Shown: in pieces, positions 1 through 48,006 of the stretch
Position numbering within the stretch: position 1 is the stretch's first letter
Layout: each line of letters opens with the position of its first letter
NCBI GenBank assembly: GCA_944323255.1
Contig: CALURU010000012.1
Location: forward strand, 3,459-67,458
Direction: 5' to 3'
Origin: Candidatus Gastranaerophilales bacterium
GTDB taxonomy: Bacteria > Cyanobacteriota > Vampirovibrionia > Gastranaerophilales > Gastranaerophilaceae
Length of the DNA stretch: 64,000 nucleotides
Notes under the pieces: generated by a model
Seen by the model: only the letters and a program-made list of their open reading frames with translations
What the model was told of the DNA's origin: nothing
The model's database searches: none
Position numbers and translations under genes: made by a program

Positions 1-2628
1 CATTTTATACAAAGGAACATCCATTTGCCTTGCAAGAGTTTCCACAATGGTTGTTTTACCCGTTCCCGGAGGACCTTCGAGAATAACTCCGCCTGGAAGG
101 CTTCTTCTATTTGCAATAAGCATCTGGCGGACTTCCGGACGCCATACATCTATTATGTTTTCTTCAAGCGCCTGCTTAACTTCATCCATTCCGCCTAATT
201 CATCCAGTGATTTAAAATCCCAGTCGTTGTATTTGTGCTGTTCCAAACCTGCTTTATTGCAAAATTCGCCCATCAAACGTTTATTATAATCATCAAAACA
301 TTCTTTTATACATTCGCCAAAATCTTTATTGTTCAGAATTGCAGCTCTTTTTGCGTCAGTCAAAACAGAGGTTATTGTTGACATAGAGCTTCCGTCAAAT
401 TCTTTTGCGGCTGCTTCAAGAAATTCTTTATCATTTGCTAATTCTTTAGTGAACGGAGTTTTTGCAAGTTCTTTTTGAACAACATCCATAATTGCGGCTT
501 TGTCAGGATTAGAAAAGGCAATCCAGTTTCCGAGTCTGCCTCTGCGCTTTAGTGCAGGATCGATTCCGTCAAGGTCATTGGTTGTGGCAATCAGGATAAA
601 ACCTTTTGATGACGGGTTGTTAAGCTCCTGAAGCAATGTGTCGGTGACTTCCTGCTTGTGACTTGCTGTATTATCACCTCTTGCTTCGCCGAGGGAATCA
701 AATTCATCAAAGAACCAGACTGACATTTCTCCCGTTGCTGCGTATTTGTCGTTAAGCTGCTTTGCCATTTCTCTTATACGGCGGCTGACTTCGTGAATAT
801 AAGAACTTGCAACGTCGGAAAGTTTTGTTTCATAGAAAGGAAGCCCGAGTTCACGAGCTAGAACTTTTGCGGTTAGGGTTTTTCCGTTTCCTGCAGGTCC
901 GTAAAAAATTGCACCGTCAGGAATTGCGCTGCTTCCGAGGTTTTCTTTCAGTTTATCAAGATTCTGGAACGGCTCAATGTAGAGTTTTTTCAACTTTTCT
1001 TTAATATCAGGCATTCCGCCTAAATCGTCAAGTTTCATAATCTCGTCTGACGTTACCGGTATACGTTTAAATTCAGGCGTATCGTACATTGTGGTTTTGT
1101 TAAACTCGTCAACCGGCTGGATTCCTGCTGCTTTAGTAAATTCTGCGAGTTCTTCTCTTACGGTTTCCGGCTCAACGCAGTATTTTTTGTTGTAGACAGA
1201 TGCTCTGGCGCTTTCCGCAAGCACGTTTTCAATATCGGAATACTTGAACCCTTCTGTCTTTTCACCTATTTCATTAATCATTTCTTCCGTGTTTAAGTCT
1301 TTAAACAGGTATTTATCTTTAAAATATTGTCTCAAATACTCTTTTCTGTCCTCAATATCCGGAATTTTAAGTTCCATAACTTTGTCGAAGATTCCGGAAC
1401 TTAGGAATTTTGAGTCAATATCGCATTTTTTATCTGCGGTTGCAAAAAGCAAAGCGCCTTTATCTCCGCAGTTTTCGGCTGTAAGCAGAAAATTCTTTTT
1501 GTCTAAATCGCAGTTTGGTCCTGTTGTGAAGAATTTATCAAAACCACGGATTAGAACGATTGTTCTTAAACCGTTTTTTGCGTACTCTTTTTCAATATCT
1601 TTGAGCATCGGTTTAAATTCCTGCGGATTGTACAGCTGCAAAACCGGCATTTGGGTTTCGTTAGAGAGTGCTTTAACAAAATTTACCGTATCTTCGGAAG
1701 TTTCCAGCAAAATCCCGTTAGGAATTCCGATATTGTTGGCTCTTAGTGTTGCATTTGCTGCCTGTTCGTTAAGTGGAATAATGACATTTTCTTTCAATTC
1801 TTCCTTAATCTTGTCCATACCGATAATTTCATCTATATTTTTCGGGTCGGAAGGCAGGATTTGAAGCGGTGCATAGTTTTGGAAAGAGGAAGGAAGTTTT
1901 TTTGCCTCAGGCTTATTTAATTTTTCCTCCTTTTTTCCGTTATCTACAATTTCTTCATAATCATTTTCCGGAACAGCTGCTTGTTTATCTTTTGAGGTTT
2001 GTGCAAGTTCACTGCTCTGCGGAGTTTCTTCTTCAACCTCTTCAAACGAGTCAAAAAAATCTATTTCCGGTTCTGTTTTTTTACTCTCTTCCGGTTTTGC
2101 CGGAATCGTTTCTTCGGTTTTATTTTCCTCTAAGTTTTGAGCCACAGGCTGCATTTGGGCAGGTTTAACAACAACAGGGTCTGACATGTACATTTTTGCT
2201 GCCGAAGTTTTTGCATCTTCAACATTTGGATTTTCAATCTGTAATTCAGGCTGTGGTTTGGACGAATACTCAACAGACTGCTTTGGCGGCAATATTTCGG
2301 CAGAATATTTACCCCCCCGCTGAACAAGTATATTTTTCATCTCGTCGCTTTTTGCATAATCAAGCGGAGTTTTACCATTCGGGGCAAAGTTTATAATCCC
2401 TTCTCTTGCGTTTGGTTTTGCTGTCAAATAGTTAACCAGCATTAAATAATTATTGTTTACAAATTTCTGAAAAAGAGTCTCCGAATTTTCATCCACAAGG
2501 TTCGGATCAAGTTTACCCTTTCTTGAAATATTTAAAAATTCTTTTTCTGTCGGAAACGTTTCATCTTTTCCTTTAAAAGCAGGGGTAGTATACAATTCTC
2601 TGTTATTGGGGATTGAAAACCTATACAT
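1..2628 (-). CDS. Multi-module AAA+ ATPase (N-terminal ankyrin-like repeat, acidic linker, at least three tandem classic-AAA modules); runs off the left edge, so absent from the ORF track
   Basis: Manual translation of sampled segments from ATG at 2628 (RBS GAAAGGA) stays in one open frame down to base 1. Motifs: GKTPLDYA (2353-2376); degenerate module GIPNGILLETSEDT; module 2 Walker A GPAGNGKT (877-900), Walker B WFFDEFD, SRH TTNDLDGIDPALKRRGR; module 3 Walker A GPPGTGKT (52-75). Confidence 0.85.
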   Translation of the reverse strand, partial: MYRFSIPNNRELYTTPAFKGKDETFPTEKEFLNISRKGKLDPNLVDENSETLFQKFVNNNYLMLVNYLTAKPNAREGIINFAPNGKTPLDYAKSDEMKNILVQRGGKYSAEILPPKQSVEYSSKPQPELQIENPNVEDAKTSAAKMYMSDPVVVKPAQMQPVAQNLEENKTEETIPAKPEESKKTEPEIDFFDSFEEVEEETPQSSELAQTSKDKQAAVPENDYEEIVDNGKKEEKLNKPEAKKLPSSFQNYAPLQILPSDPKNIDEIIGMDKIKEELKENVIIPLNEQAANATLRANNIGIPNGILLETSEDTVNFVKALSNETQMPVLQLYNPQEFKPMLKDIEKEYAKNGLRTIVLIRGFDKFFTTGPNCDLDKKNFLLTAENCGDKGALLFATADKKCDIDSKFLSSGIFDKVMELKIPDIEDRKEYLRQYFKDKYLFKDLNTEEMINEIGEKTEGFKYSDIENVLAESARASVYNKKYCVEPETVREELAEFTKAAGIQPVDEFNKTTMYDTPEFKRIPVTSDEIMKLDDLGGMPDIKEKLKKLYIEPFQNLDKLKENLGSSAIPDGAIFYGPAGNGKTLTAKVLARELGLPFYETKLSDVASSYIHEVSRRIREMAKQLNDKYAATGEMSVWFFDEFDSLGEARGDNTASHKQEVTDTLLQELNNPSSKGFILIATTNDLDGIDPALKRRGRLGNWIAFSNPDKAAIMDVVQKELAKTPFTKELANDKEFLEAAAKEFDGSSMSTITSVLTDAKRAAILNNKDFGECIKECFDDYNKRLMGEFCNKAGLEQHKYNDWDFKSLDELGGMDEVKQALEENIIDVWRPEVRQMLIANRRSLPGGVILEGPPGTGKTTIVETLARQMDVPLYKM

Positions 2629-2771
2629 ATTTTTCCTTTCAAATATTATAGCGCTATTTATATTTATTTACCCCAAAAATTGTAAAAATATTTTTTGCTA
2701 AATCTGTAACGATACATTAAAGAATTGTAACAAATAGTGGAAATAATTTTTTTTATTGATTAGAATATCTA

Positions 2772-3314: not shown

Positions 3315-3369
3315 ATAATGAGCAGTGAAGTTAGAAGGGTACGATAATAATATTATAAATTCCAATCAC

Positions 3370-3390
3370 TCTTCACGCTTCACCCTTCAC
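3370..3390 (-). repeat. Three GTGAAG(A/C/G) heptamers in inverted orientation upstream of recA
   Basis: tcttcac-gcttcac-ccttcac. Confidence 0.7.
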
Positions 3391-3411
3391 CGGAATGAGA
3401 AAGGTTAAAAA

Positions 3412-4470: not shown

Positions 4471-4499
4471 TTGACAAAAAAGTATTATTATGATATAAA
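4471..4499 (+). promoter_or_regulatory. Near-consensus sigma70 promoter downstream of recA, with no CDS following on this strand
   Basis: TTGACA (4471-4476), 17-bp spacer, TATAAA (4494-4499) with extended -10 TG. Confidence 0.65.
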
Positions 4500-4505
4500 G
4501 TTAGT

Positions 4506-4556
4506 GGGGTAAATGTATATTTTTGAGTCTTGCACACACTGCAAGACTTTCCTTTT
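4506..4556 (+). ncRNA. Candidate ~50-nt small RNA beginning GGGGUAAAUGUAU
   Basis: Lies between the promoter at 4471-4499 and a terminator hairpin at 4526-4548 with U-tract; purely a prediction. Confidence 0.35.
4526..4556 (+). terminator. Intrinsic terminator (recA and/or sRNA)
   Basis: AGTCTTGCA-cacac-TGCAAGACT followed by TTCCTTTT. Confidence 0.75.
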
Positions 4557-7872: not shown

Positions 7873-8048
7873 ATATTTCTCCTTTACTATGTAGTGACTA
7901 TTGATATCCTATATATATAAAGTCTTGTGAAGAAAAAAAATTGCTTTTTGAGATTGAAATGTTAACTTTTGTAACGAAATATATAAGAAAAAGTGGGCAA
8001 AATCCTTTTGAGATAAGGATTCCGGTTAATGTATTTTTATTGTGCAGG

Positions 8049-8319
8049 GTGAGGGGTGAGGAGTGAGGAGTGAAGGGAACATTTAAGTAGGTCAGGTTTT
8101 ACCTGACATTAACTTTTTTCTGGATGCATCGGTTAGGCATACCTGCGATATATCGTGAAGAGTGAAGGGTGAGGAGTGAAGATTGTAGGTCGGCTTTACT
8201 AAGCCGACAAAAACTTTCTTATTAAAATATTAATTTTTTGTTTATTTTTTTAAGTTTGTTTAAAAAGAGTGGTTTAATGATAGTACAGTGACTAAGTGAT
8301 TAAGTGACTAAGTGATCAA
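8049..8319 (+). repeat. Mosaic intergenic repeat element upstream of dnaK
   Basis: GTGA(A/G)G(A/G) heptamers x4 (8049-8076) and x4 (8155-8182); GTAG-hairpins (8087-8108, 8185-8208); GTGA(C/T)TAA-type octamers x4 (8288-8319). Confidence 0.85.
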
Positions 8320-8340
8320 GAAAAAGTTTTAGCCGTTTAA

Positions 8341-10233
<1,893 letters not shown>

Positions 10234-13400: not shown

Positions 13401-13938
13401 ACAGGAGCTTCAAGGGCAAATAGAAACACTTAGCCGTGAAAGAGAACAAATTCTTGAGAGAATGAAAGGCTACGAGGATTTGAAAAAAGAAACCTTCCTC
13501 AAAACTTACAATGTTTTAAACGAAAACTTTAAAGATATTTTCCACAAGCTTTCAGACGGTGAAGGAACACTTATTCTTGAAAACGAAGAAAAACCGTTTG
13601 AAGGCGGACTTGACATAGAAGCACAGCCGAGAGATAAGAAAAAACAGCGTCTTGCAGGTATGTCAGGCGGTGAAAAAGCACTGACGGCACTTTCTTTTGT
13701 TTTTGCAATCCAAAAGTACATGCCGGCACCTTTCTACGCTTTTGACGAAGTTGACGCAAGCCTTGACGGTATAAACGTTGAAAAGCTTGCCCATATTGTA
13801 CAATCTCAGGCAGAGACGACACAATTTATCGTAGTAAGCCACAGAAAACCAATGATTGAATCTGCTAACAGGACAATCGGCGTAACCCAGAAAGAAAAAG
13901 GCATCTCCAAAGTTACCGGTGTCAAGCTCCGCGACTAG
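10444..13938 (+). CDS. smc: Chromosome segregation protein SMC
   Basis: Walker A GPNGSGKS, coiled coils, hinge (GRATFVPLN, GGAVRK), signature MSGGEKAL, Walker B AFDEVDASLD. Confidence 0.98.
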   Translation: MYIKQLEIDNFKSFANKVEIPMLKGFTTISGPNGSGKSNIIDSILFALGLSTSRTLRAEKLFHLISTYNKRNEAYVKVTFGETDDGDFSVARRIRKSSQGFNSIYYLDDKIATLSDIHAKLEKYNITPNSYNVMMQGDVMSITNCTPNERRKIIDEIAGVADFDRRIEQATGELDTVEKRVVNSTLILNEVNARLEQLNEEKEVALKYQKLKDEKTALESQINTVKFFDLRRNLEKAHENILEFTKRKKEEEVKSKDLEERLRLIKERYDEISKTITEKGEGHQLELKQKAEEIKGSIDRKNSSIAYADKQIQDNLKTIENAKNGIEVQKDKIKDAELKISLKQDQIKGIEKNIEEQKAILHKILEDMSGLNETAEKHIEKRNSLRKELEELQDKETKLIQKQAPMEADLSTKKKALEDAKAKLAELESFKANFSETRSSKELLIEQLGKELDDFKIILKNTLYEYDKTKNEITDLDYDLQAARKKIYQLEAVKQANEEANLGRAVDTVVNANIQGVHAPLVKLGQVDEEYSTAMEIAVGGRMSHIVVDDEHVASTCIELLKSSNAGRATFVPLNKIVKCPRSLNLPKEKGVIDFAINLIDFDDEYLNAFYYAVGETLVVEDRSVANKLIGKYRMVTLSGDLFEKSGSITGGAVRKTGLKFSQNSDSEIDTFKSRLKEMESKYAALVSKRSTLEAKMEDVRSKYSNSTTEFNKAKLELTSLETNFANTQQNIEERQNFIKTTEPEISSLEKSLDKMEEEHITISEKMTDLQTSIEEVEKLMNDADLKDLKEKTAGVEAEIKRYEKNMADTNHEIEGLKQTIDFIKNTTLETMNETIDRSEKANCELELDKAKFAEEIKGLKEQLEVLEVQIKEITEKLGELLKQRDEINNDLVKVETDKNLKANEIEKIAEQIESFKARRRELEPQLEETKNILEEAGVNINDLTPVEMSIEEITSRIQRLQKRMDDLGAVNMKALEDFENVSARQQELQGQIETLSREREQILERMKGYEDLKKETFLKTYNVLNENFKDIFHKLSDGEGTLILENEEKPFEGGLDIEAQPRDKKKQRLAGMSGGEKALTALSFVFAIQKYMPAPFYAFDEVDASLDGINVEKLAHIVQSQAETTQFIVVSHRKPMIESANRTIGVTQKEKGISKVTGVKLRD

Positions 13939-14020
13939 GGGGGGTAAATGTATTTGGTCGGTAGGTAAAACTACAAGTTAGGCGTTTTACAAGGGGGGTA
14001 AATGTATCGGGTTGGTGAGT
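13938..14020 (+). repeat. Diverged direct duplication starting GGGGGGTAAATGTAT, period 54 bp
   Basis: GGGGTAAATGTAT at 13941 and 13995; downstream TTGGTCGGTAGGTA vs CGGGTTGGTGAGTA. Confidence 0.8.
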
Positions 14021-14037
14021 AGTGAATGGTGGGTATG

Positions 14038-14108
14038 GTGACTAAGTGATTAAGTGACTGAGTGACTAAGATTAGTGAAGCGTGAGGTGTGAAGCGTGAA
14101 GGGAACAT
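14038..14108 (+). repeat. GTGA octamer x4 plus heptamer x4 array upstream of the ORF6N gene
   Basis: GTGACTAAGTGATTAAGTGACT is identical to 8288-8309; ends GAAGGGAACATT as at 8072-8083. Confidence 0.85.
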
Positions 14109-14195: not shown

Positions 14196-14705
14196 ATGGA
14201 AAATTTAGTACAAATCCAAAATTTAATATACGAAATTAGAGGATTCAAGGTAATGCTCGACAGCGACCTCGCAAAGTTGTATGAAGTTGAAACAAGAGCT
14301 TTAAATCAGGCAGTAAAGCGTAATATTGAAAGATTTCCGGCTCATTACATGTTTCAGCTTACAAAAGAGGAATACAAAAACTTGATATCACAAAATGTGA
14401 TATCAAATTGGGGCGGGGTCAGAAAAATGCCTTATGTTTTCACCGAGCAAGGTGTTGCAATGCTTTCATCGGTTTTAAAATCCAAACGTGCAATTCAAAT
14501 TAATATCCAGATTATTGACACATTTGTTAAGCTAAGGCAGCTTGCAATTGAGCACAAGGATTTGGAGCAGAGAATTGCAGAATTGGAGCATTACTTCATC
14601 GAACATACAAAAGATTACAAAGAAGATATGAAGGAAATTTATCAGGCTATTGACTTATTGATGGACAGAACAAAGCCTTCAAAAGTAGGGTTTGTTAAGG
14701 AATAA
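14196..14705 (+). CDS. ORF6N domain-containing DNA-binding protein
   Basis: IRGFKVMLDSDLAKLYEVETRALNQAVKRNIERFP...PYVFTEQGVAMLSSVLKS. Confidence 0.93.
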   Translation: MENLVQIQNLIYEIRGFKVMLDSDLAKLYEVETRALNQAVKRNIERFPAHYMFQLTKEEYKNLISQNVISNWGGVRKMPYVFTEQGVAMLSSVLKSKRAIQINIQIIDTFVKLRQLAIEHKDLEQRIAELEHYFIEHTKDYKEDMKEIYQAIDLLMDRTKPSKVGFVKE

Positions 14706-15926: not shown

Positions 15927-16534
15927 TGGAACAATTAAAATCCAGAATTGAAGCCGTTTTGTTTGTCACTGCCCGTGTGCTTCAAATAAAAGATATAGCA
16001 GAAATTTTAGAGGAAGAACCGGATAAGATTGAAGAAGCCTTGCTGGAATTGATTATGGATTATGCCTCACGTGATGGCGCTCTGGAGATTGACGACGAGG
16101 ATGGATATATTTTGCAGGTAAAACAAGAGCATCTGGATATTGTAGAAAAGCTTTGTCCTGTAGAGCTAAAGCCGCCTGTACTCAAGACACTTACTGTTAT
16201 TGCGCTGAAAGAGCCTATCAGACAGTCTCTGCTCAAGGAACTTAGGGGTTCAAACGCTTACGAACATGTGCAGGAGCTTCTGGAAAAAGGTTTAATTTCC
16301 CGTCATAAAGACAAGAACGGCAGATCTTTTAATATTAAAACAACTCCAAAGTTTGCGGAATATTTTAAGCTTAAAGGCGATGTAAGAACTCTGGTCAAGA
16401 CGTTGAATATTGACAAAGGGGTAAAGGACGATCCGGAAGAAGGACGCCAGACTTCTCCGCAGGGTGAAAAAGGGGTAAAGGACGATCCGGAAGAAGGACT
16501 CCAGGCTTCTCCGCAGACTGCTCACGAAAACTAA
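15926..16534 (+). CDS. scpB: Segregation and condensation protein B, with a C-terminal 18-aa duplication
   Basis: IEAVLFV, LKTLTVIALKEPIRQS, ELRGSNAYEHVQELLEKGLI, TTPKFAEYF. Confidence 0.95.
   Translation: MEQLKSRIEAVLFVTARVLQIKDIAEILEEEPDKIEEALLELIMDYASRDGALEIDDEDGYILQVKQEHLDIVEKLCPVELKPPVLKTLTVIALKEPIRQSLLKELRGSNAYEHVQELLEKGLISRHKDKNGRSFNIKTTPKFAEYFKLKGDVRTLVKTLNIDKGVKDDPEEGRQTSPQGEKGVKDDPEEGLQASPQTAHEN
16415..16516 (+). repeat. In-frame 54-bp tandem duplication in the scpB 3' end
   Basis: AAAGGGGTAAAGGACGATCCGGAAGAAGGAC at 16415 and 16469 (KGVKDDPEEG x2). Confidence 0.95.
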
Positions 16535-20949: not shown

Positions 20950-23900
20950 ATGGAGGGTTATATGAATCGTATTTTCTGGAAAAGGCTTGGTATATTGCTT
21001 GTTGGGGCGGTTGTGCTTTTATATCTTGTATTTTTATCCTGCCCGCTTATACTCAATCCGATTATCGAGGGTTATATTCCCCAGATAAAGGAGATTATAA
21101 AAGAGACAACCGGCTTGGATTCTAACCTGGAAGGTGTGCGGGTTGTAACCACTCCAAAACTTACAGCAGGATTGAAGGCGGAAAAGTTTGAACTTTTGAT
21201 ACCTGACGGAAAGAGGGTATTATCTGCCAGCGGTTTTAGGGTAAAAATGTCTGTAATTCCGCTTTTTGCAAGAAGAATTGAAGTTGATGCCATTCAGCTT
21301 GATAGTGCAAAGGCTAATTTATTGGTCATGCAAGACGGGACTTTTGAGGTAGAAAAATATTTCCCTAAGAGTGAAGAGACCGATGAAGCGGCTGAACATG
21401 AGACTGCTGCGATAACAGGGCTTCCGCTCGGGTTTAAGTTGTCCAATCATCTGCCGGATATAGAGGTTAAGGATTATACAGTTACAATAACTGATGGTGC
21501 TGACGAATATACACTAAGCGGGTTTAATACAAAAATCAGTGATTTTATTTTAAATAAGAGCATTAAGGTAAAAGCTTCCGGAAAAGCGGTTTTAAAGGGT
21601 AGAGAGCAGTTCAGTTATAATGTTAATATTTTGAATAAAATCATGCCGGATATGGAGTTAAATGACCTTGTGTTTAATCCTGCACCAGCGGAGGAAAAAG
21701 TTCAGAAGGAAACTTTCAGGGTTAATATAATAGAGATTTTGCAGGGAATCTATGCAAATAATCTTATGGCGAAGGCTGATGCTGATTTGACAATAGCAAA
21801 AGAAGGAATCAACGGGCAGGCGGAGATTACTAATTTATCTATTATAAATCTGCCTCCCAGTTTTATAAAATTGAAGTTTAAGGAAAACAGCGTCGATATT
21901 TTATCCGATATTTATACAGCAAAGGGCGAAGTATCAAAGATTGACGGGATTTTTCAGGGCGGCAAAAAGCCGAAAATTGACTTGAATTTTAAATCAAAAG
22001 TTGAGATTGCAAATATTTTAAAGATAGTAAAAGATATTGCTGTAATTTTTGATATAAAAGATTTACAGACTTTGAGCGCAAACGGTAAAATCGATGCAAA
22101 TTTTAATATCAAATCAGATTTAAAGACGGTAAAATCAAGCGGGTATTTGAATATACCTTCTGCAGACGTTTATTATGGTTTGTACAAAATCGGGGTTGAC
22201 AATATCAATGCTGAAGTAAAACTTAACAATAATAATATCAATATTAATAATATAGGGTTCACTATTTTAAACCAGCCGCTTAAATTATACGGAACTATAA
22301 CTTCTGATGCAGTAAGTGATTTACACCTGACAGCAGAAGATTTGAACCTTAAAGGTCTGATTGTTGCGGCAGGTCAGGCAGCTTTGATGAAAGATAATCA
22401 GGTTAACTCGGGCTTGGTCTCTATGAAGGCGGATATTACAGGCAGGCTGGATAAGATTAATCCGGCAGTTAAACTGGATTTAAAGAATATTAATATTAAA
22501 AATATTCCATCCAATACAACGCTGAAACTCCCTTCTACTACCGTAGGAATAACGACGGACGGAAAGACATTTAAGGGAACAGCAGTTGCTTTGGATATCT
22601 TGGCAGCTAATCCTTGTGCAAAAATTTCCATACCGGAAATAAAGGCTGTTATTAAGGAAAATGAAATAAGTATTTCTCAAACCCCTGTAACTGTCGAAAA
22701 AATTAAATTTAATCTTTCAGGCAAAATCAAAAATTATCTGACAGATAAAATTGACTTGGATTTTGTTACGACAGGTGATATAAAATCAACTCTTAGCGGA
22801 ATTGTTAATATGGCAAAACAGAGTTTGCACCTCACTTATGCCACTACGGAAAGTTCAACAATTATCATACCTATGTTTGACAAATCCAAGATGACATTTA
22901 CCGGAAATATTCATATTACAGGCAGTATGATGAATCCGGTTTTGAACGGTGCAATAAATATTCCGTCACTTGAGATTCCTGAGATTCCTGTCACAATGAC
23001 CGCCACCGAAATTAAACTAAATGGTCATATTCTTAATGGCAATGCGTCTGTTTTGAAATTTGCATCAGGCGGAATTGAGGCGCAGAATCTTACCGGAGAT
23101 TTTTCGCTCAAGGGTGAAAATTTTTATCTGAATAACCTTAAAGGCGATGCTTTTGACGGAAAAATTAACGGAAATATCATATATAATATTACAAACGCAA
23201 AAACATCCGTTGAAATGAGCGGTGAAAATATGAATGCAGAAAAAACCGTAAGAGGCGGAGTCGGTATCAAAAACGCAATTTCAGGAACTTTGAATTTCAA
23301 TACCAAGTTATCTTTAATCGTAACGGATTACAACGAAATGATGAAATCGCTTGCGGGAAATTTGAAGTTTAACGTAAAAAATGGTGCGTTTGGTTCAATC
23401 GGAAGGTTAGACCAATTCCTGCTTGCGGGGAATATAATTTCAAATTCGCTACTAAAGACAACAACCGAAACCATTGTTAAAAATACAAGTCTATCCGATA
23501 CTGCCAAGTTTGAATACATTGACGGGAATTTAAATTTTGCAGACGGCTGGGCAAAAATAGAGCCGATTAAGAGTTCCGGAAGTGTTCTGGCATACTATAT
23601 TTCAGGTAAATATAACCTTATTAACGGAACTACCAACGTTAATCTGCTCGGAAGATTAGATGCCCAAATCGTCGCCAAACTTGGACCGCTGGGTCATCTT
23701 TCGGCAGACAAGCTGCTTTCTTATATTCCGAATTTTGGCTCCTCTACGGCAAAAATTGTGAACGCCCTTACCGCAGATCCTAAGAGTGAAAACACAGACG
23801 CTATTCCGGCGCTTACAAGCGGAAGCACAAACTATCAGGATTTTAAAGTCCAGTTTAACGGCGGTTTGGAAAGCACAAGCTCCGTAAAATCGTTCAAATG

Positions 23901-24135
23901 GCTTACAAAAGTCGATACAAGTGCAATTGAAACCAAGTCAGTATCCGAAACAGTAAAAGATATTACAACTTCTGTTAATGAGGATCTGACAAATACAGTT
24001 AATACTGTTAAAGATGCAGTTTCAGCTTCTAAAGACGAATGGAATGCCACAAAAGAACAATTGAAAAATAGTGCGGAAGAGTTGAAAAATCTGTTTAAAT
24101 TCAAAACGGAATCTTCTTCCAATACTGCACAATAG
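20950..24135 (+). CDS. AsmA-family (AsmA/TamB-like) envelope protein
   Basis: N-terminal TM, long beta-rich body, AsmA-like C-terminus (GNLKFNVKNG, YYISGKYNL..NVNLLGRL). Confidence 0.75.
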   Translation: MEGYMNRIFWKRLGILLVGAVVLLYLVFLSCPLILNPIIEGYIPQIKEIIKETTGLDSNLEGVRVVTTPKLTAGLKAEKFELLIPDGKRVLSASGFRVKMSVIPLFARRIEVDAIQLDSAKANLLVMQDGTFEVEKYFPKSEETDEAAEHETAAITGLPLGFKLSNHLPDIEVKDYTVTITDGADEYTLSGFNTKISDFILNKSIKVKASGKAVLKGREQFSYNVNILNKIMPDMELNDLVFNPAPAEEKVQKETFRVNIIEILQGIYANNLMAKADADLTIAKEGINGQAEITNLSIINLPPSFIKLKFKENSVDILSDIYTAKGEVSKIDGIFQGGKKPKIDLNFKSKVEIANILKIVKDIAVIFDIKDLQTLSANGKIDANFNIKSDLKTVKSSGYLNIPSADVYYGLYKIGVDNINAEVKLNNNNININNIGFTILNQPLKLYGTITSDAVSDLHLTAEDLNLKGLIVAAGQAALMKDNQVNSGLVSMKADITGRLDKINPAVKLDLKNINIKNIPSNTTLKLPSTTVGITTDGKTFKGTAVALDILAANPCAKISIPEIKAVIKENEISISQTPVTVEKIKFNLSGKIKNYLTDKIDLDFVTTGDIKSTLSGIVNMAKQSLHLTYATTESSTIIIPMFDKSKMTFTGNIHITGSMMNPVLNGAINIPSLEIPEIPVTMTATEIKLNGHILNGNASVLKFASGGIEAQNLTGDFSLKGENFYLNNLKGDAFDGKINGNIIYNITNAKTSVEMSGENMNAEKTVRGGVGIKNAISGTLNFNTKLSLIVTDYNEMMKSLAGNLKFNVKNGAFGSIGRLDQFLLAGNIISNSLLKTTTETIVKNTSLSDTAKFEYIDGNLNFADGWAKIEPIKSSGSVLAYYISGKYNLINGTTNVNLLGRLDAQIVAKLGPLGHLSADKLLSYIPNFGSSTAKIVNALTADPKSENTDAIPALTSGSTNYQDFKVQFNGGLESTSSVKSFKWLTKVDTSAIETKSVSETVKDITTSVNEDLTNTVNTVKDAVSASKDEWNATKEQLKNSAEELKNLFKFKTESSSNTAQ

Positions 24136-24189
24136 AATTATCTTTCAGAAAAGGGGTACAGAGGAAAAACGCTAAGCTTTTCCGCAGGG

Positions 24190-24229
24190 TGAGAAGAGGC
24201 GCCGGCAAGCTTGCCGGCGCCTCTTCTCA
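24190..24229. terminator. 40-bp perfect palindrome between convergent genes (probable bidirectional terminator)
   Basis: TGAGAAGAGGCGCCGGCAAG|CTTGCCGGCGCCTCTTCTCA, no spacer. Confidence 0.7.
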
Positions 24230-37086: not shown

Positions 37087-37387
37087 TTTTTAACCTTTCT
37101 TATCGGGCGGCATCGATTTTTATTCTGTATTTATTTTATTCCTACCCGTTGCCCTCTGCTGTTCGTACTACCTGTCTGACGTTGCGAAATTTTTAACCTT
37201 TCTTGTCGGGCAGAACCTGACCTGCAATTTTTAGTCACTTTTGCTTACCCCTCACCCTATCCCTCTCCCAACAGGGGCGAGGGGAAAAAGGCTTCCTAAC
37301 CGCATTATTCATTTGTCATTTATCTGGCAAAGCCTGACCTACAATTCTTAGTCACCCAGTCACTTATTCACTTTAACCACTATTCAC
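37087..37387. repeat. Mosaic repeat element between fliP and fliQ
   Basis: Duplicated TTTTTAACCTTTCTT(A/G)TCGGGC (37087, 37190); two inverted GTAG/GCAG hairpins (37204-37225, 37321-37342); CCCCTCACCCTATCCCTCTCCC..GGGGCGAGGGG (37248-37284); inverted GTGA octamers (37348-37387). Confidence 0.8.
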
Positions 37388-38025
37388 TAATTATAACTTT
37401 GCACCAAGCCCTGAACAATTAACGCCCATCCATCAACTGCAATAAATATAAGCAATTTGAACGGAAGTGAGATAATTGTTGGTGATAACATAAACATACC
37501 GAGTGCAAGAAGTATGTTTGCTACAACTAAATCTAATACAATGAACGGAACAAATACTATAAAACCGATTTCAAAAGCTGTTTTGAGTTCACTCAAAATA
37601 TACGCCGGAGCGACTTCCCAGAGGGTTATGTCTTCCGGACTCTTAGGAGGCGTTTTGTGTTTCAGCTCTACAAAAAACGCTAAATCGCTCTCTCTTGTTT
37701 GTTTCATCATAAATTCTTTCAGCGGTTTTGAACCTTCATTTATGGCTTCAATCAAGTTCTGGTTCTTCTGGTACGGAATCGAGCCCCTGTCATACATTTG
37801 CTGAAATACATTCCCCATTGTGTAAAAAGTTAGTATCATACATAAACCGATTGTAACAATCGCCGGCGGAACCTGTACACCCATAGCTGTTTTAAGAAGC
37901 GAAAATACTATCGTAAATCGCAAAAAACAGGTCATACAGCAAAAAACAAACGGTAATAACGAAAACAGTGTCATTACTGTCAGCATTTGCAAAACCGGAT
38001 TCATATCTTGTATTACTGATTCCAT
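37387..38025 (-). CDS. fliP: Export gate protein FliP/SctR, short form without signal peptide
   Basis: MTCFLRFTIVFSLLKTAMG..QVPP, PAYILSELKTAFEIGF..FVPFIVLDLVVANILLALGMFMLSPTIISLPFKL. Confidence 0.95.
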   Translation of the reverse strand: MESVIQDMNPVLQMLTVMTLFSLLPFVFCCMTCFLRFTIVFSLLKTAMGVQVPPAIVTIGLCMILTFYTMGNVFQQMYDRGSIPYQKNQNLIEAINEGSKPLKEFMMKQTRESDLAFFVELKHKTPPKSPEDITLWEVAPAYILSELKTAFEIGFIVFVPFIVLDLVVANILLALGMFMLSPTIISLPFKLLIFIAVDGWALIVQGLVQSYN

Positions 38026-38045: not shown

Positions 38046-38150
38046 GTGAAGGGTGAAGAGTGAGGTGTGAAGGTTCATTATAGAAATTATTTAATTGTGA
38101 CTTGTTTTACTTATTAATATTTTTAATTGCTTGCTTCACTCTTCACACCT
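38046..38150. repeat. Forward GTGA heptamers x4 facing inverted copies, between fliO and fliP
   Basis: GTGAAGG GTGAAGA GTGAGGT GTGAAGG (38046-38073); gcttcac tcttcac (38133-38146). Confidence 0.8.
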
Positions 38151-39771: not shown

Positions 39772-39934
39772 ACTTAACCATTTCCCTACGGATAAACCTG
39801 CTCCTCACAAACATTTATCCCCAAGCTTATAATACATAATTATTTATATAAACACATCAACTGTTTGTATGAATTTTAATCAGGGTAAATAAGCAAGTGA
39901 TAAATGGATAGGAGGATTAATCGGAGTGCAAAAA

Positions 39935-39961: not shown

Positions 39962-39981
39962 GACTTTATTAAAAAAAACAA

Positions 39982-44043: not shown

Positions 44044-44073
44044 AAAAAGCAGGCAATCAGGAGCCTGCTTTTT
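44044..44073. terminator. Bidirectional terminator between hom and the SLH gene
   Basis: AAAAAGCAGGC-N8-GCCTGCTTTTT. Confidence 0.85.
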
Positions 44074-44098
44074 CTTGTTTTAGCGAACGACTTACTTA

Positions 44099-46048
44099 CT
44101 ATTCGCCGCTGCAACCAAATGCAATGGTTACACGTTCTTTTGGATTGATGGCAGAAATTTTGTATCCCTTAGCGTCAACTAAGTATCCGACTTCGTCGCC
44201 GGTTGCCTGTACTAAGCCGACAGTACCGGAAATTGCAGTTCTTGTAAGGTCGATAGGAGCTTTGATTGTGTCCTTAACAACATCGCCGACACTTCTTGCA
44301 GATGCCATAAACTGACCCTGGAAGGCTTCACCTAAGGCAATACCTGTACCGGAAGCTACGTCTTCAAGTGCGTTACCAAGGTTAGATAACATACCGCCTG
44401 TTGTACGACCTACAATACCTAACATCTGACCGCCCCATGTAAGAGGTGCCGTAACGATTCTTGATACAATGTTCGGTGTATTAGACTTGTTGATTTCAGC
44501 GTTAAGGATTTGTCTAGGAAGTGTTGCTTTGCAGCCGCAGTTTTCAATTTCAGTGAATGCAAGTTTCAATGCACCCTTTTGGCATCCTGAAGGTCTTACA
44601 ACTTCTACAACTTTACCGTAAACTTTTGATCCGCAAGGGAATAATTTACCGTTGATTGTAACATCTTCTAATGTCTTAGCTGCAAATCTTTGTCCTACGT
44701 GAGAAGATTTTGCACTGACTTGATCTTTGAATTCCAACTGAAGTGTAGGAATTTGAACAAGTTCTTCGTTTTCAATAAATGCTTTCTTGTCAACAGGACA
44801 CATAGGGCAATCGTTGTTTGCTGTTACAGGGTTTTTGTCAATGCCTGCTGCTACACGAATGTTTTGTAACATAGCTGCGATATCAGCACGGGAAGCATCC
44901 TTAAACGGTGCAATAGTATTAGGGTTAGGTGAGTTATTCAAAGCACCTTTATCTAATGCAATTGCGATAGGAATTTGAGCCCATTCAGGAACTGTGTTTC
45001 CGTCGCAGTATTTAGACAAGATTTCTTGAGCTTTGCATTTGTCCATAGTTGGACATTGAATACCCTTAGATAATGCACAGAGTGCTTCTGCTCTTGTTAC
45101 ATTGTGGTTTGGAAGGAATTTGCCGTCAGGATATCCCTTGAGCAAGTCCTGATGAACCGCAACTGTAATAGCTGAATTTGCCCAGTGGTTTGTAGGAACG
45201 TCTGAGAATAGTTTTTCAGGTGCGCAAGAGTACATGTCTTTGTTAAAACCTTTAACTAACATAGTTGCAAATTCTGCACGTGAAATATTCTTAGACGGTT
45301 TGAATAATCTGTCCGGATAACCTACAACAACATCATTTGTTGCAAGTTTATCGATTTCGCAAGAAGCCCAGTATCCGTCAGGAACGTCAGGGAACATTTG
45401 CAAGCCTGCTGCTGCACCTGTCATGTTGCTGAAAGGTGAAAGGTCAAACGGTACTAATGTCTTTTTAACGGCTTGAATTGAGTTTGCCGTACCCATCTGA
45501 ATAGGGCAGCCGTTACCGTCTATTTTTGCTTCATCTCTTACAATCGGCGCACCAGTGTGTCTCGGCATATCGTTTAGACAAGGAATGTCTGTTGCCGCAC
45601 CCGTAATTGAGCCGTCAGAAGCTACAGTTGTACCCATTGTTCCTGCTGTAAGTTTGTTAATTTCTCTGTTTACCGAAAAACCTTCTGCTGTGTAGATAGA
45701 ATCTTTTTCTGTACCTACAAAATTGTTGTAACCGTAAACAGCGTTAGGATAAGAGTAAACCTGTTTCATATCTGCACGTGACAGATCTTTTGTTCCCGGG
45801 CAAAGTGCACATGAAGGAACCGGATCAGGTTCGCACTCCGGAGCGGCATTACATCCGCAATCCGGTGCCGGAGTAGGATCACAAGGACAGGCAGCACCTG
45901 TAATTTCAGGAATGTCATCGCAAGGACACGCACCCTGTGTTACTACAGGTTTTTGGTCGCACGGGCAGGCTGCCATTACCGTATTGAACGAACACGTTGC
46001 TATCCCAACGGCAATTGCAGCTGCCACAGTAAGTTTTCTAATCGTCAT
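44099..46048 (-). CDS. S-layer homology (SLH) domain protein with Cys-rich N-terminus
   Basis: FPDVPDGYWA..VVGYPDRLFKP..ISRAEFA; FSDVPTNHWA..KGYPDGKFLP..VTRAEA; third SLH ASRADIA; ATG 46048 after GGAGG. Confidence 0.9.
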   Translation of the reverse strand: MTIRKLTVAAAIAVGIATCSFNTVMAACPCDQKPVVTQGACPCDDIPEITGAACPCDPTPAPDCGCNAAPECEPDPVPSCALCPGTKDLSRADMKQVYSYPNAVYGYNNFVGTEKDSIYTAEGFSVNREINKLTAGTMGTTVASDGSITGAATDIPCLNDMPRHTGAPIVRDEAKIDGNGCPIQMGTANSIQAVKKTLVPFDLSPFSNMTGAAAGLQMFPDVPDGYWASCEIDKLATNDVVVGYPDRLFKPSKNISRAEFATMLVKGFNKDMYSCAPEKLFSDVPTNHWANSAITVAVHQDLLKGYPDGKFLPNHNVTRAEALCALSKGIQCPTMDKCKAQEILSKYCDGNTVPEWAQIPIAIALDKGALNNSPNPNTIAPFKDASRADIAAMLQNIRVAAGIDKNPVTANNDCPMCPVDKKAFIENEELVQIPTLQLEFKDQVSAKSSHVGQRFAAKTLEDVTINGKLFPCGSKVYGKVVEVVRPSGCQKGALKLAFTEIENCGCKATLPRQILNAEINKSNTPNIVSRIVTAPLTWGGQMLGIVGRTTGGMLSNLGNALEDVASGTGIALGEAFQGQFMASARSVGDVVKDTIKAPIDLTRTAISGTVGLVQATGDEVGYLVDAKGYKISAINPKERVTIAFGCSGE

Positions 46049-46158
46049 TTTAACCTCCTTTGGTATTAGGTGTGGAGTAGATTTACGTTCATTCTGCAAA
46101 CTTCATTTACCCCTTTTATATGGAGCAGTGGTTTTAGCTCCTTTGAAACTTCTTATCG

Positions 46159-46277
46159 GTTGAATAGTTGAAAAGTTGAAAGGTTGAATAGTTTGTTTTA
46201 AACTGATCTTCGTGCAGATTAGTAAACATTGCAGATTTTTTTAACTTTTCAACTGTTCAACTTATCCACTTTTCAAC
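46159..46277. repeat. Four GTTGAA(A/T)N octamers followed by five inverted copies
   Basis: 46159-46190 forward; 46238-46277 inverted (ttttcaac, tgttcaac...). Confidence 0.85.
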
Positions 46278-46416
46278 TGTATTTCATTGACACCTAAATT
46301 ATGGAGTTTTTCGCAAATTAAATCATTACCAAAAAAGAGAGTCCAGTCGGGTTATTAGAAGTTTTATTAACTTTTGTACCGCTGAACTCTCTCTGGTTTC
46401 TTATCCTGTAATTATA

Positions 46417-48006
46417 CTAATTCAGGCTTGTAGTAAAATCTTCTGCCGAAAATTCTTTGCCTGTCAATTGTTTGATTAAATCGTATTCTTCCACGGAAGC
46501 ACCAAATTTGAAGATATTTTCATCCATATATTTTGAGCTCTCCGGATTTTCGGTGATATTTCCAAGCTTTGATTTCAGAAAATTATAAATCTGAACCTTC
46601 ATAAGATTTGCTCTAAAATAATTCTGATAGTATGCCGGATGAGAAAGATAATGCGGAATTGTCGCCCACTCGTTATCCGCTTTAGTTTTTCTGTTTAAAT
46701 ATTTATAAGTCAAATTATTCCAGAGCTCTTTCGGATTCTGCTCCGGATTTGCGTAAAATTGACGTTCAAAATCGATTATAAGAAGACTTTTTGCTACAAA
46801 ACCCGCTTCATCTTCTATGTGTGTTGCCTTAAATTTCTCCAAAAGCTCGGCAGGAATAATTCCGGCTAAAACATTTTCAGTCTTGATAATATCACCCATC
46901 ATCATTGCAATCGCTTCCGTAACGGCAGGAGAAGAAGCACGTTTATCAAGGTATGTGAGCGAAAGCGAAATCCCTAAATCATAAACGCAGTGTCCGAGTT
47001 CATGATTCAGCGTATCAAGGCTTGTAACATTGTTTGTAAGGTTCGCCAATATCCTTGAATCCTTTCCGGTTTCTACGCCAAAACAGAAGCCGTGGGTGTT
47101 TTTACCTTTTCTTGGAAATAAATCCAGAGTAATTTTTCCCTCTTTCTCAAACTCATCTATATCATAACCCATATTTTTATACATGCTTTTTGAAATCGAA
47201 ACAATGTCTTGAGCCTCCAAAATTTTATTCACCCCTTTTTCAACCCTTTTTACAAGTTGAGCTTGAGCCTCTAAAATTTCATTTACCCCTTTTTCTGGAT
47301 TTGTGTCCAGTAGCAAACCATAATGGTAATTTTCTAAGGAGTTTATTCCAAAAAATTCTTTTAATTCATTTTGCTTCCTAGATAAAATCTCGTTAATTTT
47401 ATTATTTGATTCTGAATAAGTTTCATCTATTAATTTGTCCAGAAAGTCGAAATCTACATCATAATCCTCTTTAAGCTTGTATTCAAAATAATTTTTGTAC
47501 CCTTTGTTTTGTGCAAAACTGTTTCTCATCCTGACAAATTCGACCATGTCATCTGCAATTAAATCTCCGCCCTTGATTTTGGCATCATAAGCTTTTTGGC
47601 GCTTCTCCGGATTGGTTTCCGTTTGCAGAATCTTAAAAATCTCTGTTTTTGTAACCTCTTTTCCGTCAATTTGGGGAATATAAGAATTAAACTTTTTGGC
47701 TATTTCATTTTCTTTTTGCCTTAAAGCTTTCAGCTCTTCACCTGTGTTTAATTCTTCATCAAACTCTTTTAATAAATCTTTAAGCTGCTTTTGTTCGTGT
47801 TTTGAAAGGGGATTTTTATCAACTGTTTTAAATTTTTCATAAAATTCTTCATTTCTGAAAAGCTTTGAGTATTCTTCCTGAACTTCTTCGTATTTTTTCA
47901 AGTTTTCAGGGGTCGAGTTTGTATAAAAATCCCAGCAGGATTTTTCCAGTGCGATAGAAACCCGTTCTAAATCTTTGCAAAACTCATCTCGTAATTCATT
48001 AAACAT
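46417..48006 (-). CDS. M3/M2-like zinc oligopeptidase
   Basis: DLFPRKGKNTHGFC, TLNHELGHCVY (HExxH), EAIAM, WATIPHY..PAYYQNYFRA. Confidence 0.88.
   Translation of the reverse strand: MFNELRDEFCKDLERVSIALEKSCWDFYTNSTPENLKKYEEVQEEYSKLFRNEEFYEKFKTVDKNPLSKHEQKQLKDLLKEFDEELNTGEELKALRQKENEIAKKFNSYIPQIDGKEVTKTEIFKILQTETNPEKRQKAYDAKIKGGDLIADDMVEFVRMRNSFAQNKGYKNYFEYKLKEDYDVDFDFLDKLIDETYSESNNKINEILSRKQNELKEFFGINSLENYHYGLLLDTNPEKGVNEILEAQAQLVKRVEKGVNKILEAQDIVSISKSMYKNMGYDIDEFEKEGKITLDLFPRKGKNTHGFCFGVETGKDSRILANLTNNVTSLDTLNHELGHCVYDLGISLSLTYLDKRASSPAVTEAIAMMMGDIIKTENVLAGIIPAELLEKFKATHIEDEAGFVAKSLLIIDFERQFYANPEQNPKELWNNLTYKYLNRKTKADNEWATIPHYLSHPAYYQNYFRANLMKVQIYNFLKSKLGNITENPESSKYMDENIFKFGASVEEYDLIKQLTGKEFSAEDFTTSLN
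47206..47293 (-). repeat. In-frame 54-bp-period duplication inside the M3 peptidase
   Basis: EKGVNEILEAQ-AQLVKRV-EKGVNKILEAQ; ACCCC cores at 47231 and 47285. Confidence 0.9.

Follow-up and report, generated by a model that had tools for sequence, protein, structure and literature searches.

The octamer GGGGTAAA as a probable shared head of several small sequence modules in Gastranaerophilales

Introduction

The window analysed here, a stretch of 64,000 nucleotides from a Candidatus Gastranaerophilales contig, carries repeated copies of the octamer GGGGTAAA, which a sequence-only reading had taken to be over-represented, always oriented with transcription and therefore suggestive of an RNA-level or transcription-coupled signal. 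This raises the question of whether the copies represent one signal at all, or sequences of different kinds that share the same eight bases.

Results

Copies in the window and in related loci

Nine exact copies occur in the window, on the strands and at the positions originally listed, and each is co-oriented with the gene that contains or adjoins it. The copies and variants are as follows, with type I and type C denoting two classes of repeat unit headed by the octamer.

2308..2315, minus strand: coding copy in the AAA+ ATPase gene
2667..2674, minus strand: solitary copy 39 nt before the ATG (2628) of the AAA+ ATPase gene, in its promoter or leader
4471..4556, plus strand: small transcription unit behind recA, with promoter, predicted start, hairpin and U-rich tail; exact copy at 4506
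13941..13994, plus strand: full type I unit, ~52-54 nt, non-coding, 2 nt after the smc stop (TAG, 13936-13938)
13995..14022, plus strand: partial second type I unit, the head and about 14 similar bases
16418..16519, plus strand: two type C units of 54 nt (18 codons) in the C-terminal tail of ScpB, exact heads at 16418 and 16472 encoding Gly-Val-Lys
46106..46113, minus strand: solitary copy just after TATAAA in the leader of an SLH-domain gene, whose ATG (46048) follows 58 nt downstream
47200..47289, minus strand: about 1.6 type C units in frame in the M3 peptidase gene, exact head at 47282
7601: variant GGGGTATGTAT
24153..24195, plus strand: probable degenerate non-coding type C copy with head GGGGTACA, 17 nt after the stop of gene 20950-24135
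39809..39821, minus strand: variant in the fliM leader, GGGATAAATGTTT (GGGGATAAATGT at 39810-39821), directly 3' of a TATTATAAG -10-like box

The three variants had been noticed before, as had the longer identities (GGGGTAAATGTAT three times, AAAAGGGGTAAATGAA twice), and the earlier estimate of one to two copies by chance agrees with dinucleotide shuffles (1.47 +/- 1.17; 0 of 100 reach nine) and with Markov models of orders 1-4 (1.0-1.9). By enrichment, GGGGTAAA ranks only third among the ~33,000 8-mers of the window, and its p of 8e-6 per word corresponds to ~0.3 words expected at such a level. Two pairs of copies are tandem duplicates, leaving seven independent copies, a count at which about a dozen words would be expected at such a level; with one word among ~33,000 tested, the window alone is thus no proof of enrichment. 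Words with one mismatch are barely enriched, with 56 matches including the nine exact ones (47 variants) against 39.5 expected.

The enrichment is settled by independent related loci. Across 80 Gastranaerophilales loci (about 1.8 Mb), k-mer counts give 161 copies against 35.4 expected, rank 3 of 32,638 8-mers, and GGGGTAAA is the most frequent of all 280 words of equal base composition. Intergenic DNA of these loci holds 59 copies against 6-11 expected (rank 7), and a second region drawn from metagenomes, whose loci are highly redundant, holds 54 against 5.5. The over-representation first noticed in the window is therefore real, extends across the lineage and is concentrated in intergenic DNA. 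Relatives also carry octamer arrays, (GGGGTAAA)n and similar, with periods of 8-22 nt, as well as tandem units of 50-54 nt.

These counts, together with the homologous units described below, disfavour the view that chance, base composition, codon use and two local duplications explain every copy. Such a view would account for a window excess that is non-significant after correction for ~33,000 words and the duplications, for the four window copies that are codons and for a strand bias near baseline, but it is decidedly improbable given a 4.5-fold excess in independent loci (5-9-fold in intergenic DNA), the first place among same-composition words and the recurrence of GGGGTAAA at non-orthologous sites, where it heads homologous units.

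Orientation and position at gene ends

In the related loci, sense and antisense copies number 62:9 in plus-strand genes and 20:6 in minus-strand genes, so that 85% are sense within genes; between genes, 85% are likewise co-oriented. Words of the same composition are already 72% sense and 71% co-oriented, respectively. The strand bias is mostly compositional and gives little support to the argument that it points to an RNA signal. What does hold is that the octamer is not replichore-polarised, since its orientation tracks genes on both strands and switches within a few kb in the window. A Chi- or KOPS-like site or a DNA-uptake sequence, which an over-represented G-rich 8-mer might bring to mind, has next to no probability, as the former does not fit this gene-following orientation and the latter does not fit a density of about one per 9 kb with strand asymmetry.

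Position is more distinctive. Of the 32 intergenic clusters in relatives, 23 are no further than 30 nt from a co-oriented stop codon, where 10.3 would be expected (P < 5e-5). Eight share bases with a TAG stop, and at four the TAA within the motif itself serves as the stop codon. Many of these stop-adjacent heads are solitary, with no recognisable unit behind them. At least eight species carry the motif behind the smc stop, in spacers that cannot otherwise be aligned. Between species with 65-96% SMC identity, the tails of the units diverge but the head remains exact.

A ribosome-related element might produce such an arrangement, with GGGGU resembling a Shine-Dalgarno sequence and TAG-GGG-TAA-ATG supplying a back-up stop and a start for termination-reinitiation, coupling or small ORFs. 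By reasoning, GGGGU could form five pairs with the anti-Shine-Dalgarno sequence, including one wobble; the motif's TAA is in frame with the stop in 15 of 15 copies no more than 5 nt away, eight of which read TAG then GGG TAA; and ATG continues 34 of 73 intergenic copies. The in-frame TAA, however, follows in part from the way ORF ends are delimited; at 3 nt, the gap between GGGG and ATG is too small for an ordinary ribosome-binding site; a predicted start codon follows at 4-10 nt in only two or three copies; most downstream genes are over 50 nt off; and the mini-ORFs (2-19 codons) are not conserved. We consider this explanation improbable.

The arrays could alternatively be G-quadruplex-forming simple repeats, as proposed for the G-rich short tandem repeats GGGGA(C/T)T in Nostoc PCC 7120 and GGGAATC in Xanthomonas, which follow the same positional rule (Rehm et al. 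2015, PMC4692102). Some arrays of relatives (L058, L049, L006) do have at least four G-tracts, but just 16 G4-capable motifs occur in 1.5 Mb, only three of them GGGGTAAA arrays, and no window copy has four G-tracts within reach, which makes this a very faint prospect.

Type I units behind smc

The unit at 13941 starts with GGGGTAAATGTAT, has a potential 7-bp hairpin (GTAAAAC...GTTTTAC) and is homologous to units in five related loci (L001, L003, L004, L008 and L058; nhmmer E 1e-7 to 1e-12). Pairwise comparison of type I units gives z values of 2.3-14, consistent with a family of mutually homologous units with an invariant head and diverging tails; the hairpin shows no covariation support. The partial unit behind it gives way to arrays of octamers and heptamers (GTGACTAA, GTGAAGC) at 14038-14101. 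A contig of DNA run X16 joins 13937 directly to 13994, indicating a strain without one type I unit. Type I is thus a ~52-nt non-coding unit placed directly behind stop codons, single or tandem, whose copy number varies between strains.

Type C units in genes and behind stop codons

The ScpB tail repeat has a period of 54, 2.0 copies and 94% matches (TRF). The ancestral C-terminus, ...LNIDKGVKDD*, is retained across the order, and the tails of relatives contain 0-4 type C units in proteins of 168-260 aa. In the M3 peptidase gene, the units, with heads GGGGTAAA (47282) and GGGGTGAA (47228), encode EKGVNEILEAQAQLVKRV and EKGVNKILEAQD; an ortholog (L044) lacks exactly 18 residues, and human-gut relatives have 1, 2 or 3 units (510, 528 or 546 aa). 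The ancestral codons at this head are NPEK(E/A/G)VNE, so that in both genes the head coincides with ancestral Gly-Val-Lys/Asn codons.

Aligned in the same register, ScpB and M3 units have 19-31 identities over the 46 positions beyond the head, where 12 +/- 3 would be expected. For the M3 units of human-gut relatives the figure is 25-31 (p < 2e-4), and for the window's own M3 unit 19-26 (p 0.03 to < 2e-4). In some strains, a non-coding type C unit also directly follows the TAG stop of a ferritin-like gene; near-identical strains are without it. The copy at 24153, just upstream of a terminator hairpin, is about 79% identical by eye to the ScpB unit of the same genome over its 3' 24 nt, its assignment to type C being weak because the nhmmer E-value is only 0.24. 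Type C is therefore a 54-nt unit found non-coding behind stops and in frame in at least two unrelated genes, and within ScpB and the M3 peptidase it behaves as a repeat of 18 residues whose number of copies varies.

Type I and type C units have no significant likeness beyond the head, so that their grouping into one superfamily rests on the head, the length and an intermediate copy in L022.

The recA-linked unit and the solitary copies

The copy at 4506 is of another kind. It follows a promoter with TTGACA (4471-4476), a 17-nt spacer and TATAAA (4494-4499), and its GGGG is the predicted transcription start. The predicted RNA opens with a single-stranded stretch of 20 nt (GGGGUAAAUGUAUAUUUUUG), after which come a hairpin of 9-10 bp and a U-rich tail (-14.8 kcal/mol, z -2.6). 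Across seven other species (L114-L120), its transcribed 50 nt vary at a single loop base, and the promoter spacer, the unalignable flanks and the downstream gene all differ. In DNA runs the unit shows 2-6x depth with different flanks, and a metatranscriptome run (X30) contains 4507-4556. The break of that RNA contig at 4507 is seen in a DNA run too and so stems from assembly; it does not mark a mapped RNA start. An Rfam search with the unit returned no family match. Its place at the predicted start of so strongly conserved a small transcription unit gives the copy at 4506 a real role at the RNA level.

Among the solitary copies, that at 2667 lies between TTTACA and TATAAA and is identical in same-species strains, while the SLH-domain gene downstream of 46106 is non-syntenic in the relatives compared. 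The coding copy at 2308, in the frame nGG-GGT-AAA (Gly-Gly-Lys) by its coordinates, is part of no repeat and is most simply a chance or codon occurrence.

Discussion

The nine window copies are heterogeneous and form no single signal. The proposed RNA-level reading stands for 4506 and is not supported for the nine taken together: four copies are codons (Gly-Val-Lys/Asn, Gly-Gly-Lys), codon usage being an explanation that the proposal had itself said would refute it, and two pairs are local duplications.

A broader RNA-level account is possible, though we think it unlikely. In it, GGGGUAAAU would be a host signal at gene ends and some 5' ends, read by a dedicated RNA-binding factor, nuclease or termination system, with arrays and tandem units as multivalent sites and the recA-linked 50-nt RNA as a decoy or regulator. 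The exactness of the head across species with diverging flanks, the strong preference for positions directly behind co-oriented stop codons, its presence behind smc despite unalignable spacers, and a near-invariant small RNA that begins with GGGGTAAA and is present in a metatranscriptome all speak for it. Against it stand a strand bias scarcely above the compositional baseline, and the gain and loss of sites among close relatives, as seen at a gene end that bears the motif in L001, L004 and L049 and a decayed version in the window ortholog, and in the difference between near-identical strains at the ferritin-like gene. Moreover, only one or two of about 55 window gene ends bear the motif, the end of the RNA contig at 4507 stems from assembly, and coding repeats anchored on GGGGTAAA require a DNA-level explanation regardless.

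On balance, we favour the view that GGGGTAAA(T) is probably a conserved head common to several small, lineage-specific Gastranaerophilales modules, which the window samples along with a few unrelated copies. The over-representation would then be generated at the DNA level: type I and type C units may grow and shrink through slipped-strand or unequal recombination and be copied between sites that already bear the head, which, with the A-rich GAAAAA before it, could serve as a microhomology or recognition anchor. Co-orientation and stop-adjacent position would reflect the purine-rich sense strand of this particular genome and tolerance or selection at gene ends. Both the exact head amid diverging tails and the solitary stop-adjacent heads count against this DNA-level module explanation. 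The exact head, the diverging tails and the barely enriched one-mismatch variants indicate that the head itself is constrained, as would be expected equally of a host RNA signal and of a cis-site for propagation.

Several known repeat systems are comparable. REP and REPIN elements, reportedly described with their RAYT transposase by Bertels and Rainey in 2011, similarly have a short invariant head before a more variable body with hairpin potential and are intergenic, often at gene 3' ends; in contrast to them, covariation lends no support to the type I hairpin and inverted doublets are absent. The window also has separate REP-like GTAGGTCAGG...CCTGAC hairpins. Rickettsia palindromic elements are said (Ogata and colleagues, 2000) to be about 100-150 nt long and to occur both between genes and in frame in unrelated protein genes. 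Type C units share this dual location and the addition of a peptide segment, but they are 54 nt long, tandemly variable, anchored on pre-existing Gly-Val-Lys/Asn codons and without a clear palindrome.

MIRU-VNTRs, as Supply and colleagues are said to have described them in 1997 and 2000, are intergenic units of ~50 bp, oriented with flanking genes, single or tandem and strain-variable; their ends reportedly abut the upstream stop codon, with a small ORF coupling that stop to the downstream start. The units described here agree in length, location, orientation, copy-number behaviour and contact with the upstream stop. Their sequence is unrelated, the type C family also occurs in frame inside genes, and, as most downstream genes begin over 50 nt further on, they show no small ORF of the coupling kind.

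Short tandemly repeated repetitive (STRR) heptamers were reportedly described in cyanobacteria by Mazel and colleagues in 1990. With cyanobacterial and xanthomonad G-rich repeats, GGGGTAAA shares a unit made of a G-tract and a short A/T-rich rest, a strong excess in non-coding DNA and variable copy number among relatives. Unlike those arrays, it is an octamer, mostly solitary or heading 50-54-nt units, and it also starts a conserved small RNA gene; a preference for four units is absent and quadruplex potential is rare. The Nostoc repeats are biased to the non-coding strand (Rehm et al. 2015, PMC4692102), whereas 85% of GGGGTAAA copies are sense. The host Gastranaerophilales, gut-dwelling and non-photosynthetic, are the sister lineage of the photosynthetic cyanobacteria, and their GGGGTAAA repeats are of the STRR- and MIRU-like kind.

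An octamer over-represented across the lineage

The 8-nt word GGGGTAAA, hereafter the motif or head, occurs nine times in the window, on the plus strand five times and on the minus strand four times, interleaved with gene direction. The sequence-only reading had reported these nine copies, and all of its coordinates and strands are correct; the longer identities it pointed out, GGGGTAAATGTAT with three occurrences and AAAAGGGGTAAATGAA with two, are present in the window, as are all three of its variants.

Table. Exact copies of the motif in the window.
2308, minus strand: Gly-Gly-Lys codons within an AAA+ ATPase gene; part of no repeat
2667 and 46106, minus strand: gene leaders
4506, plus strand: predicted first bases of a small RNA behind recA
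13941 and 13995, plus strand: about 1.5 copies of a ~52-nt non-coding element (type I unit), starting 2 nt 3' of the smc stop codon
16418 and 16472, plus strand: Gly-Val-Lys codons in the ScpB tail (type C unit)
47282, minus strand, with GGGGTGAA at 47228: Gly-Val-Asn codons in an M3 peptidase insert (type C unit)

Dinucleotide shuffles of the window contain 1.47 ± 1.17 copies, with none of 100 shuffles reaching nine, and Markov models of orders 1–4 predict 1.0–1.9. Two of the motif pairs are tandem duplicates, so that seven copies count as independent. Variants with one mismatch show hardly any enrichment (56 matches less the nine exact ones leave 47, against 39.5 expected in all). Among ~33,000 8-mers the motif is the third most enriched in the window (p = 8e-6 each), a rank that does not by itself prove enrichment, since in 64 kb chance alone takes the top words that high. 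Enrichment among 8-mers in the window is highest for the palindrome GGAATTCC, with seven sites (e.g. 1721, 36022 and 50523), or 14 over both strands versus 2.7 expected.

Counts were extended to related DNA, comprising 80 smc loci, 26 M3 peptidase loci and 14 recA loci. The 80 smc loci (L001–L080), obtained with the SMC protein as query, represent one locus per species at 65–96% identity and total 1.46 Mb; almost all carry the label Candidatus Gastranaerophilales or Melainabacteria, and the DNA runs containing the window are chicken-gut metagenomes. Here the motif was observed 161 times versus 35.4 expected, ranking third of 32,638 8-mers and first among the 280 words of composition G4A3T1, and 43% of its copies are intergenic, versus 17% for words of the same composition. 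With intergenic DNA only, 59 copies stand against 6–11 expected (rank 7), and the metagenome loci around the M3 peptidase gene, which are redundant, hold 54 versus 5.5 expected. From these counts in independent related loci, we conclude that the head motif and its over-representation are real and lineage-wide. The top intergenic 8-mers of the smc loci, CATGTCAA/GACATGTC and CCCTCTCC, point to further repeat families.

Motif orientation and position relative to genes

The motif had been described as lying always on the transcribed strand. In the relatives, sense copies outnumber antisense copies 62:9 within genes on the plus strand and 20:6 within those on the minus strand, so that orientation tracks genes of both strands and not replication, in agreement with the earlier proposal that the motif is not replichore-polarised; a Chi/KOPS site or an uptake sequence was rejected on these grounds. 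Words of the same composition are already 72% sense within genes, versus 85% for the motif (82:15), and 71% co-oriented between co-oriented genes, versus 85% (33:6). The sense bias holds, but with a baseline this high it mostly reflects the purine-rich sense strand of the genome, and the motif's excess over the baseline is marginal, given that some tandem and orthologous copies enter the counts repeatedly.

Relative to their flanking genes, intergenic copies are oriented '>>' in 22 cases and '<<' in three. In the relatives they also lie close to gene ends, with 23 of the 32 intergenic clusters that have a co-oriented upstream gene at most 30 nt from its stop codon, compared to 10.3 under uniform placement (P < 5e-5). 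Twelve cases overlap the stop codon: eight read TAG directly followed by GGGTAAA, and four use the motif's own TAA as the stop. Downstream of smc, many species carry the motif, or an octamer array decayed from it, in spacers that are otherwise unalignable. Sites also decay, as one gene end that carries the motif in three relatives (L001, L004 and L049) reads GGGTAGGTAAG in the window's ortholog. Start codons downstream of the motif are usually 30–500 nt away and motif mini-ORFs are not conserved in the relatives; a Shine-Dalgarno role is rejected on spacing, with only 2–3 of 73 intergenic copies located 5–10 nt upstream of a start codon. The genes beside the leader copies 2667 and 46106 show no synteny with the relatives compared, and same-species strains are identical there and hence uninformative on conservation.

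A predicted small-RNA gene behind recA

The copy at 4506 is preceded by TTGACA, a 17-nt spacer, TATAAA and 6 nt, and is followed by a 9–10-bp hairpin and a U-rich tail. We compared the recA loci of seven other species, whose RecA proteins are 96–98% identical. Among the 50 predicted transcribed bases, GGGGTAAATGTATATTTTTGAGTCTTGCACACAyTGCAAGACTTTCCTTT, only one loop base varies, and the −35 and −10 boxes are invariant, while species differ in the promoter spacer, in the sequence on either side and even in which gene lies downstream. This pattern argues that the 4506 unit is a conserved small-RNA gene with the motif as its predicted first bases. In the DNA runs, the unit has 2–6-fold depth and occurs in more copies with other flanks and unchanged −35 spacing. 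A metatranscriptome contains 4507–4556, at a coverage that is sparse for inferring a transcription start; the contig break at 4507 is seen in a DNA run too, so it reflects the assembly and does not map a start. Rfam 15 gave no match at gathering score in the window, with nothing above chance-level hits at the repeat units and the small RNA, and the window contains no tRNA genes.

Three smc loci of relatives (L029 9812–9828, L035 7716–7732 and L045 568–584, minus strand) hold a 17-nt identity to the small-RNA 5' region (TGTATATTTTTGAGTCT), located 3' of a terminator hairpin and a GGGTTGTT head; these sites may be diverged kin of the recA-linked RNA. Upstream of recA, one locus (L108) differs from others of the same species (L107, L109–L112) in the arrangement of the AAA+ ATPase and next gene, with gene ends shifted by ~1 kb and two motif copies by 32–43 bp. 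Within the window's first 20 kb, metatranscriptome contigs are deepest by a wide margin over a 616-aa gene at 8383–10233.

Two families of repeat units

Homologues of the type I unit behind smc are present in five relatives (L001, L003, L004, L008 and L058), single or as 2–4 tandem copies, at non-orthologous sites and with a period of 50–53 nt. Their head, GGGGTAAAT, is invariant and the remainder of the unit diverges. A strain without one type I unit was detected in one of the DNA runs (X16). For a candidate 10-bp helix in the unit, 67% of cells pair in register versus 21–39% with the partner slid; covariation does not exceed that of shuffles and RNAalifold predicts no structure. A central hairpin in the unit is thus possible, with pairing potential yet no covariation.

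Just beyond, at 14003–14103, contig depth in the DNA runs rises 10–30-fold over a GTGACTAA/GTGATTAA array, and many contigs stop there with differing flanks, implying that this array type is highly multi-copy in the genome or the community. An ORF6N-domain (KilA-N-like) gene lies between smc and scpA at 14196–14705; it occupies this position in many relatives and is absent in others (L009, L012, L013 and L016), marking the smc–scpA spacer as a variable region.

The two heads in scpB belong to a different family. Across the order, ...LNIDKGVKDD* is the ancestral end of ScpB, and from its Gly-Val-Lys codons an 18-codon unit is repeated 0–4 times in the window's clade, giving proteins of 168–260 aa. 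The M3 peptidase varies in a similar manner, with exactly 18 residues missing in one ortholog and 1, 2 or 3 units in human-gut M3 peptidases of 510, 528 and 546 aa. Past the head and in the same register, ScpB and M3 units share 19–31 of 46 bases versus 12 ± 3 expected; compared with the ScpB unit, human-gut M3 units share 25–31 (p < 2e-4) and the window's own M3 unit 19–26 (p 0.03 to < 2e-4). Judged by these shared bases, both units are copies of one element, type C. In six loci, a profile search for type C retrieved a non-coding unit directly 3' of the TAG codon that ends a ferritin-like gene, with near-identical strains that lack it, so that type C occurs both between genes and in frame within unrelated genes. 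In the window, 24153–24195, 17 nt past another stop codon, looks like a decayed type C copy, the match being weak (E = 0.24).

Beyond the head, the likeness between type I and type C is not significant, and an nhmmer profile of either family misses the other; one relative's copy (L022) looks intermediate between them. A single event behind the three 54-nt periods of the window was rejected, since ScpB and M3 share a unit and the smc unit is of the other family, with a period of 50–53 nt elsewhere.

Other repeats in the spacers

Many window spacers carry STRR-like heptamer or octamer arrays (GTGAGGA, GTGAAGG, GTGACTAA, GTTGAAAA, TAGTGAA), located at 3366–3391, 8046–8320, 14038–14101, 37231–37400, 38046–38073, 46159–46278 and 63128–63158. 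These are sometimes inverted pairs (46159–46193 versus 46238–46278), often adjoin REP-like hairpins with a GTAG head (GTAGGTCAGG...CCTGAC), and occur in both orientations in relatives (26 versus 18). A hairpin element, CCCTCGCCCC...GGGAGAGGG(A/T)TAGGGTGAGGGG, is found at 37248–37290 (minus strand) of the window and in relatives (L003 13756, L011, L013, L014 and L052), and makes up the majority of the few motifs capable of forming a G-quadruplex. A small palindromic element, CGTCATTGCGAG(G)...(C)GAAGCAATCC, whose first bases are those of the type I unit's 3' end, occurs in both orientations (L003 6648, 13693 and 13854; L004 322, 3318, 3420, 13539, 13641, 19580 and 19650; L078 5750–5776).

Discussion

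The nine copies are of mixed nature: one is the start of a conserved small RNA, others belong to two repeat families or are codons, and some stand alone in leaders. The same exact head is common to at least three module types; tandem copy number changes on short time scales, units are present or absent between near-identical strains, and the in-frame copies are anchored on ancestral codons that spell the head.

Several known repeat families resemble parts of this picture. The G-rich repeats described in Nostoc and Xanthomonas trace back to the idea of STRRs. As a class of G-rich short repeats, with a ~7-nt unit arranged head to tail, at least four G-tracts and a preference for four units, they are the closest described to the motif (Rehm 2015, PMC4692102). 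Octamer arrays of 2–5 motif units are found in four relatives (L058, L008, L006 and L049), with no GGGGTAAA array in the window, and the motif shares with this class its intergenic and gene-end concentration. Unlike that class, there are only 16 G-quadruplex-capable motifs in 1.5 Mb, three of which are GGGGTAAA arrays, none of these three in the window, and a G-quadruplex reading is rejected for the window and for most copies.

Mycobacterial MIRUs are intergenic 40–100-bp units of variable copy number, co-oriented with their flanking genes, and carry a small ORF overlapping the upstream stop and downstream start codons. The units described here are similar in size (50–54 nt), in co-orientation, in their 1–4 copies in the relatives' arrays and in strain copy-number change, and often overlap the upstream stop, but their mini-ORFs are not conserved and downstream starts usually lie 30–500 nt away. 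REP/RAYT elements feature a conserved imperfect palindrome behind the head and go with a cognate RAYT (Y1 transposase) gene; the candidate type I helix has pairing potential and no covariation. The Rickettsia RPE is a repeat that enters reading frames, as type C does, being both intergenic and in frame in unrelated genes. Since each family's defining features are present only in part, we do not count the motif modules among any of them. We found nothing relevant in the literature on the word, on Gastranaerophilales repeats or on the CGTCATTGCGAG element.

We infer that the excess of the motif arises in the DNA itself. Units would grow or shrink in number through slippage or unequal recombination, and would be copied between sites already bearing the head, which together with the preceding GAAAAA/G would offer ~14 nt of microhomology. 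Motif orientation and gene-end position would then follow from composition and transcript tolerance. The sequence-only reading had favoured an RNA-level or transcription-coupled signal, which is partly supported: the 4506 copy does head a conserved small RNA, but the set as a whole includes repeats and codons. That the head itself is read on RNA is consistent with its exactness, with the stop-codon positional rule and with the conserved small RNA, and we consider it unlikely though worth keeping in view. More doubtful still is a fuller version, in which GGGGUAAAU would be a dedicated Gastranaerophilales RNA mark, recognised by one factor both where genes end and where the recA-linked RNA begins; the RNA would titrate or guide this factor, and the 52–54-nt units would be copy-number-tunable platforms, some co-opted into proteins. 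Less likely than this RNA mark is that the 50–54-nt units are DNA copies of small transcripts starting at GGGGUAAAU.

The Gastranaerophilales, gut bacteria related to cyanobacteria, have not been cultured, and we know of no work on their gene regulation. Here, one exact 9-base word stands at the head of a highly conserved small RNA, of mini-repeats next to stop codons, and of an insert of 18 residues whose copy number varies in two housekeeping proteins, ScpB and an M3 peptidase. Copy number varies in the spacer behind smc, in the ScpB tail and in the M3 peptidase insert, and these loci offer ready strain-typing markers for metagenomes. The data also provide clean natural cases of repeat DNA becoming protein sequence. 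The 9-base word provides a concrete target for the role of cyanobacterial STRR-type repeats, a question open since 1990.
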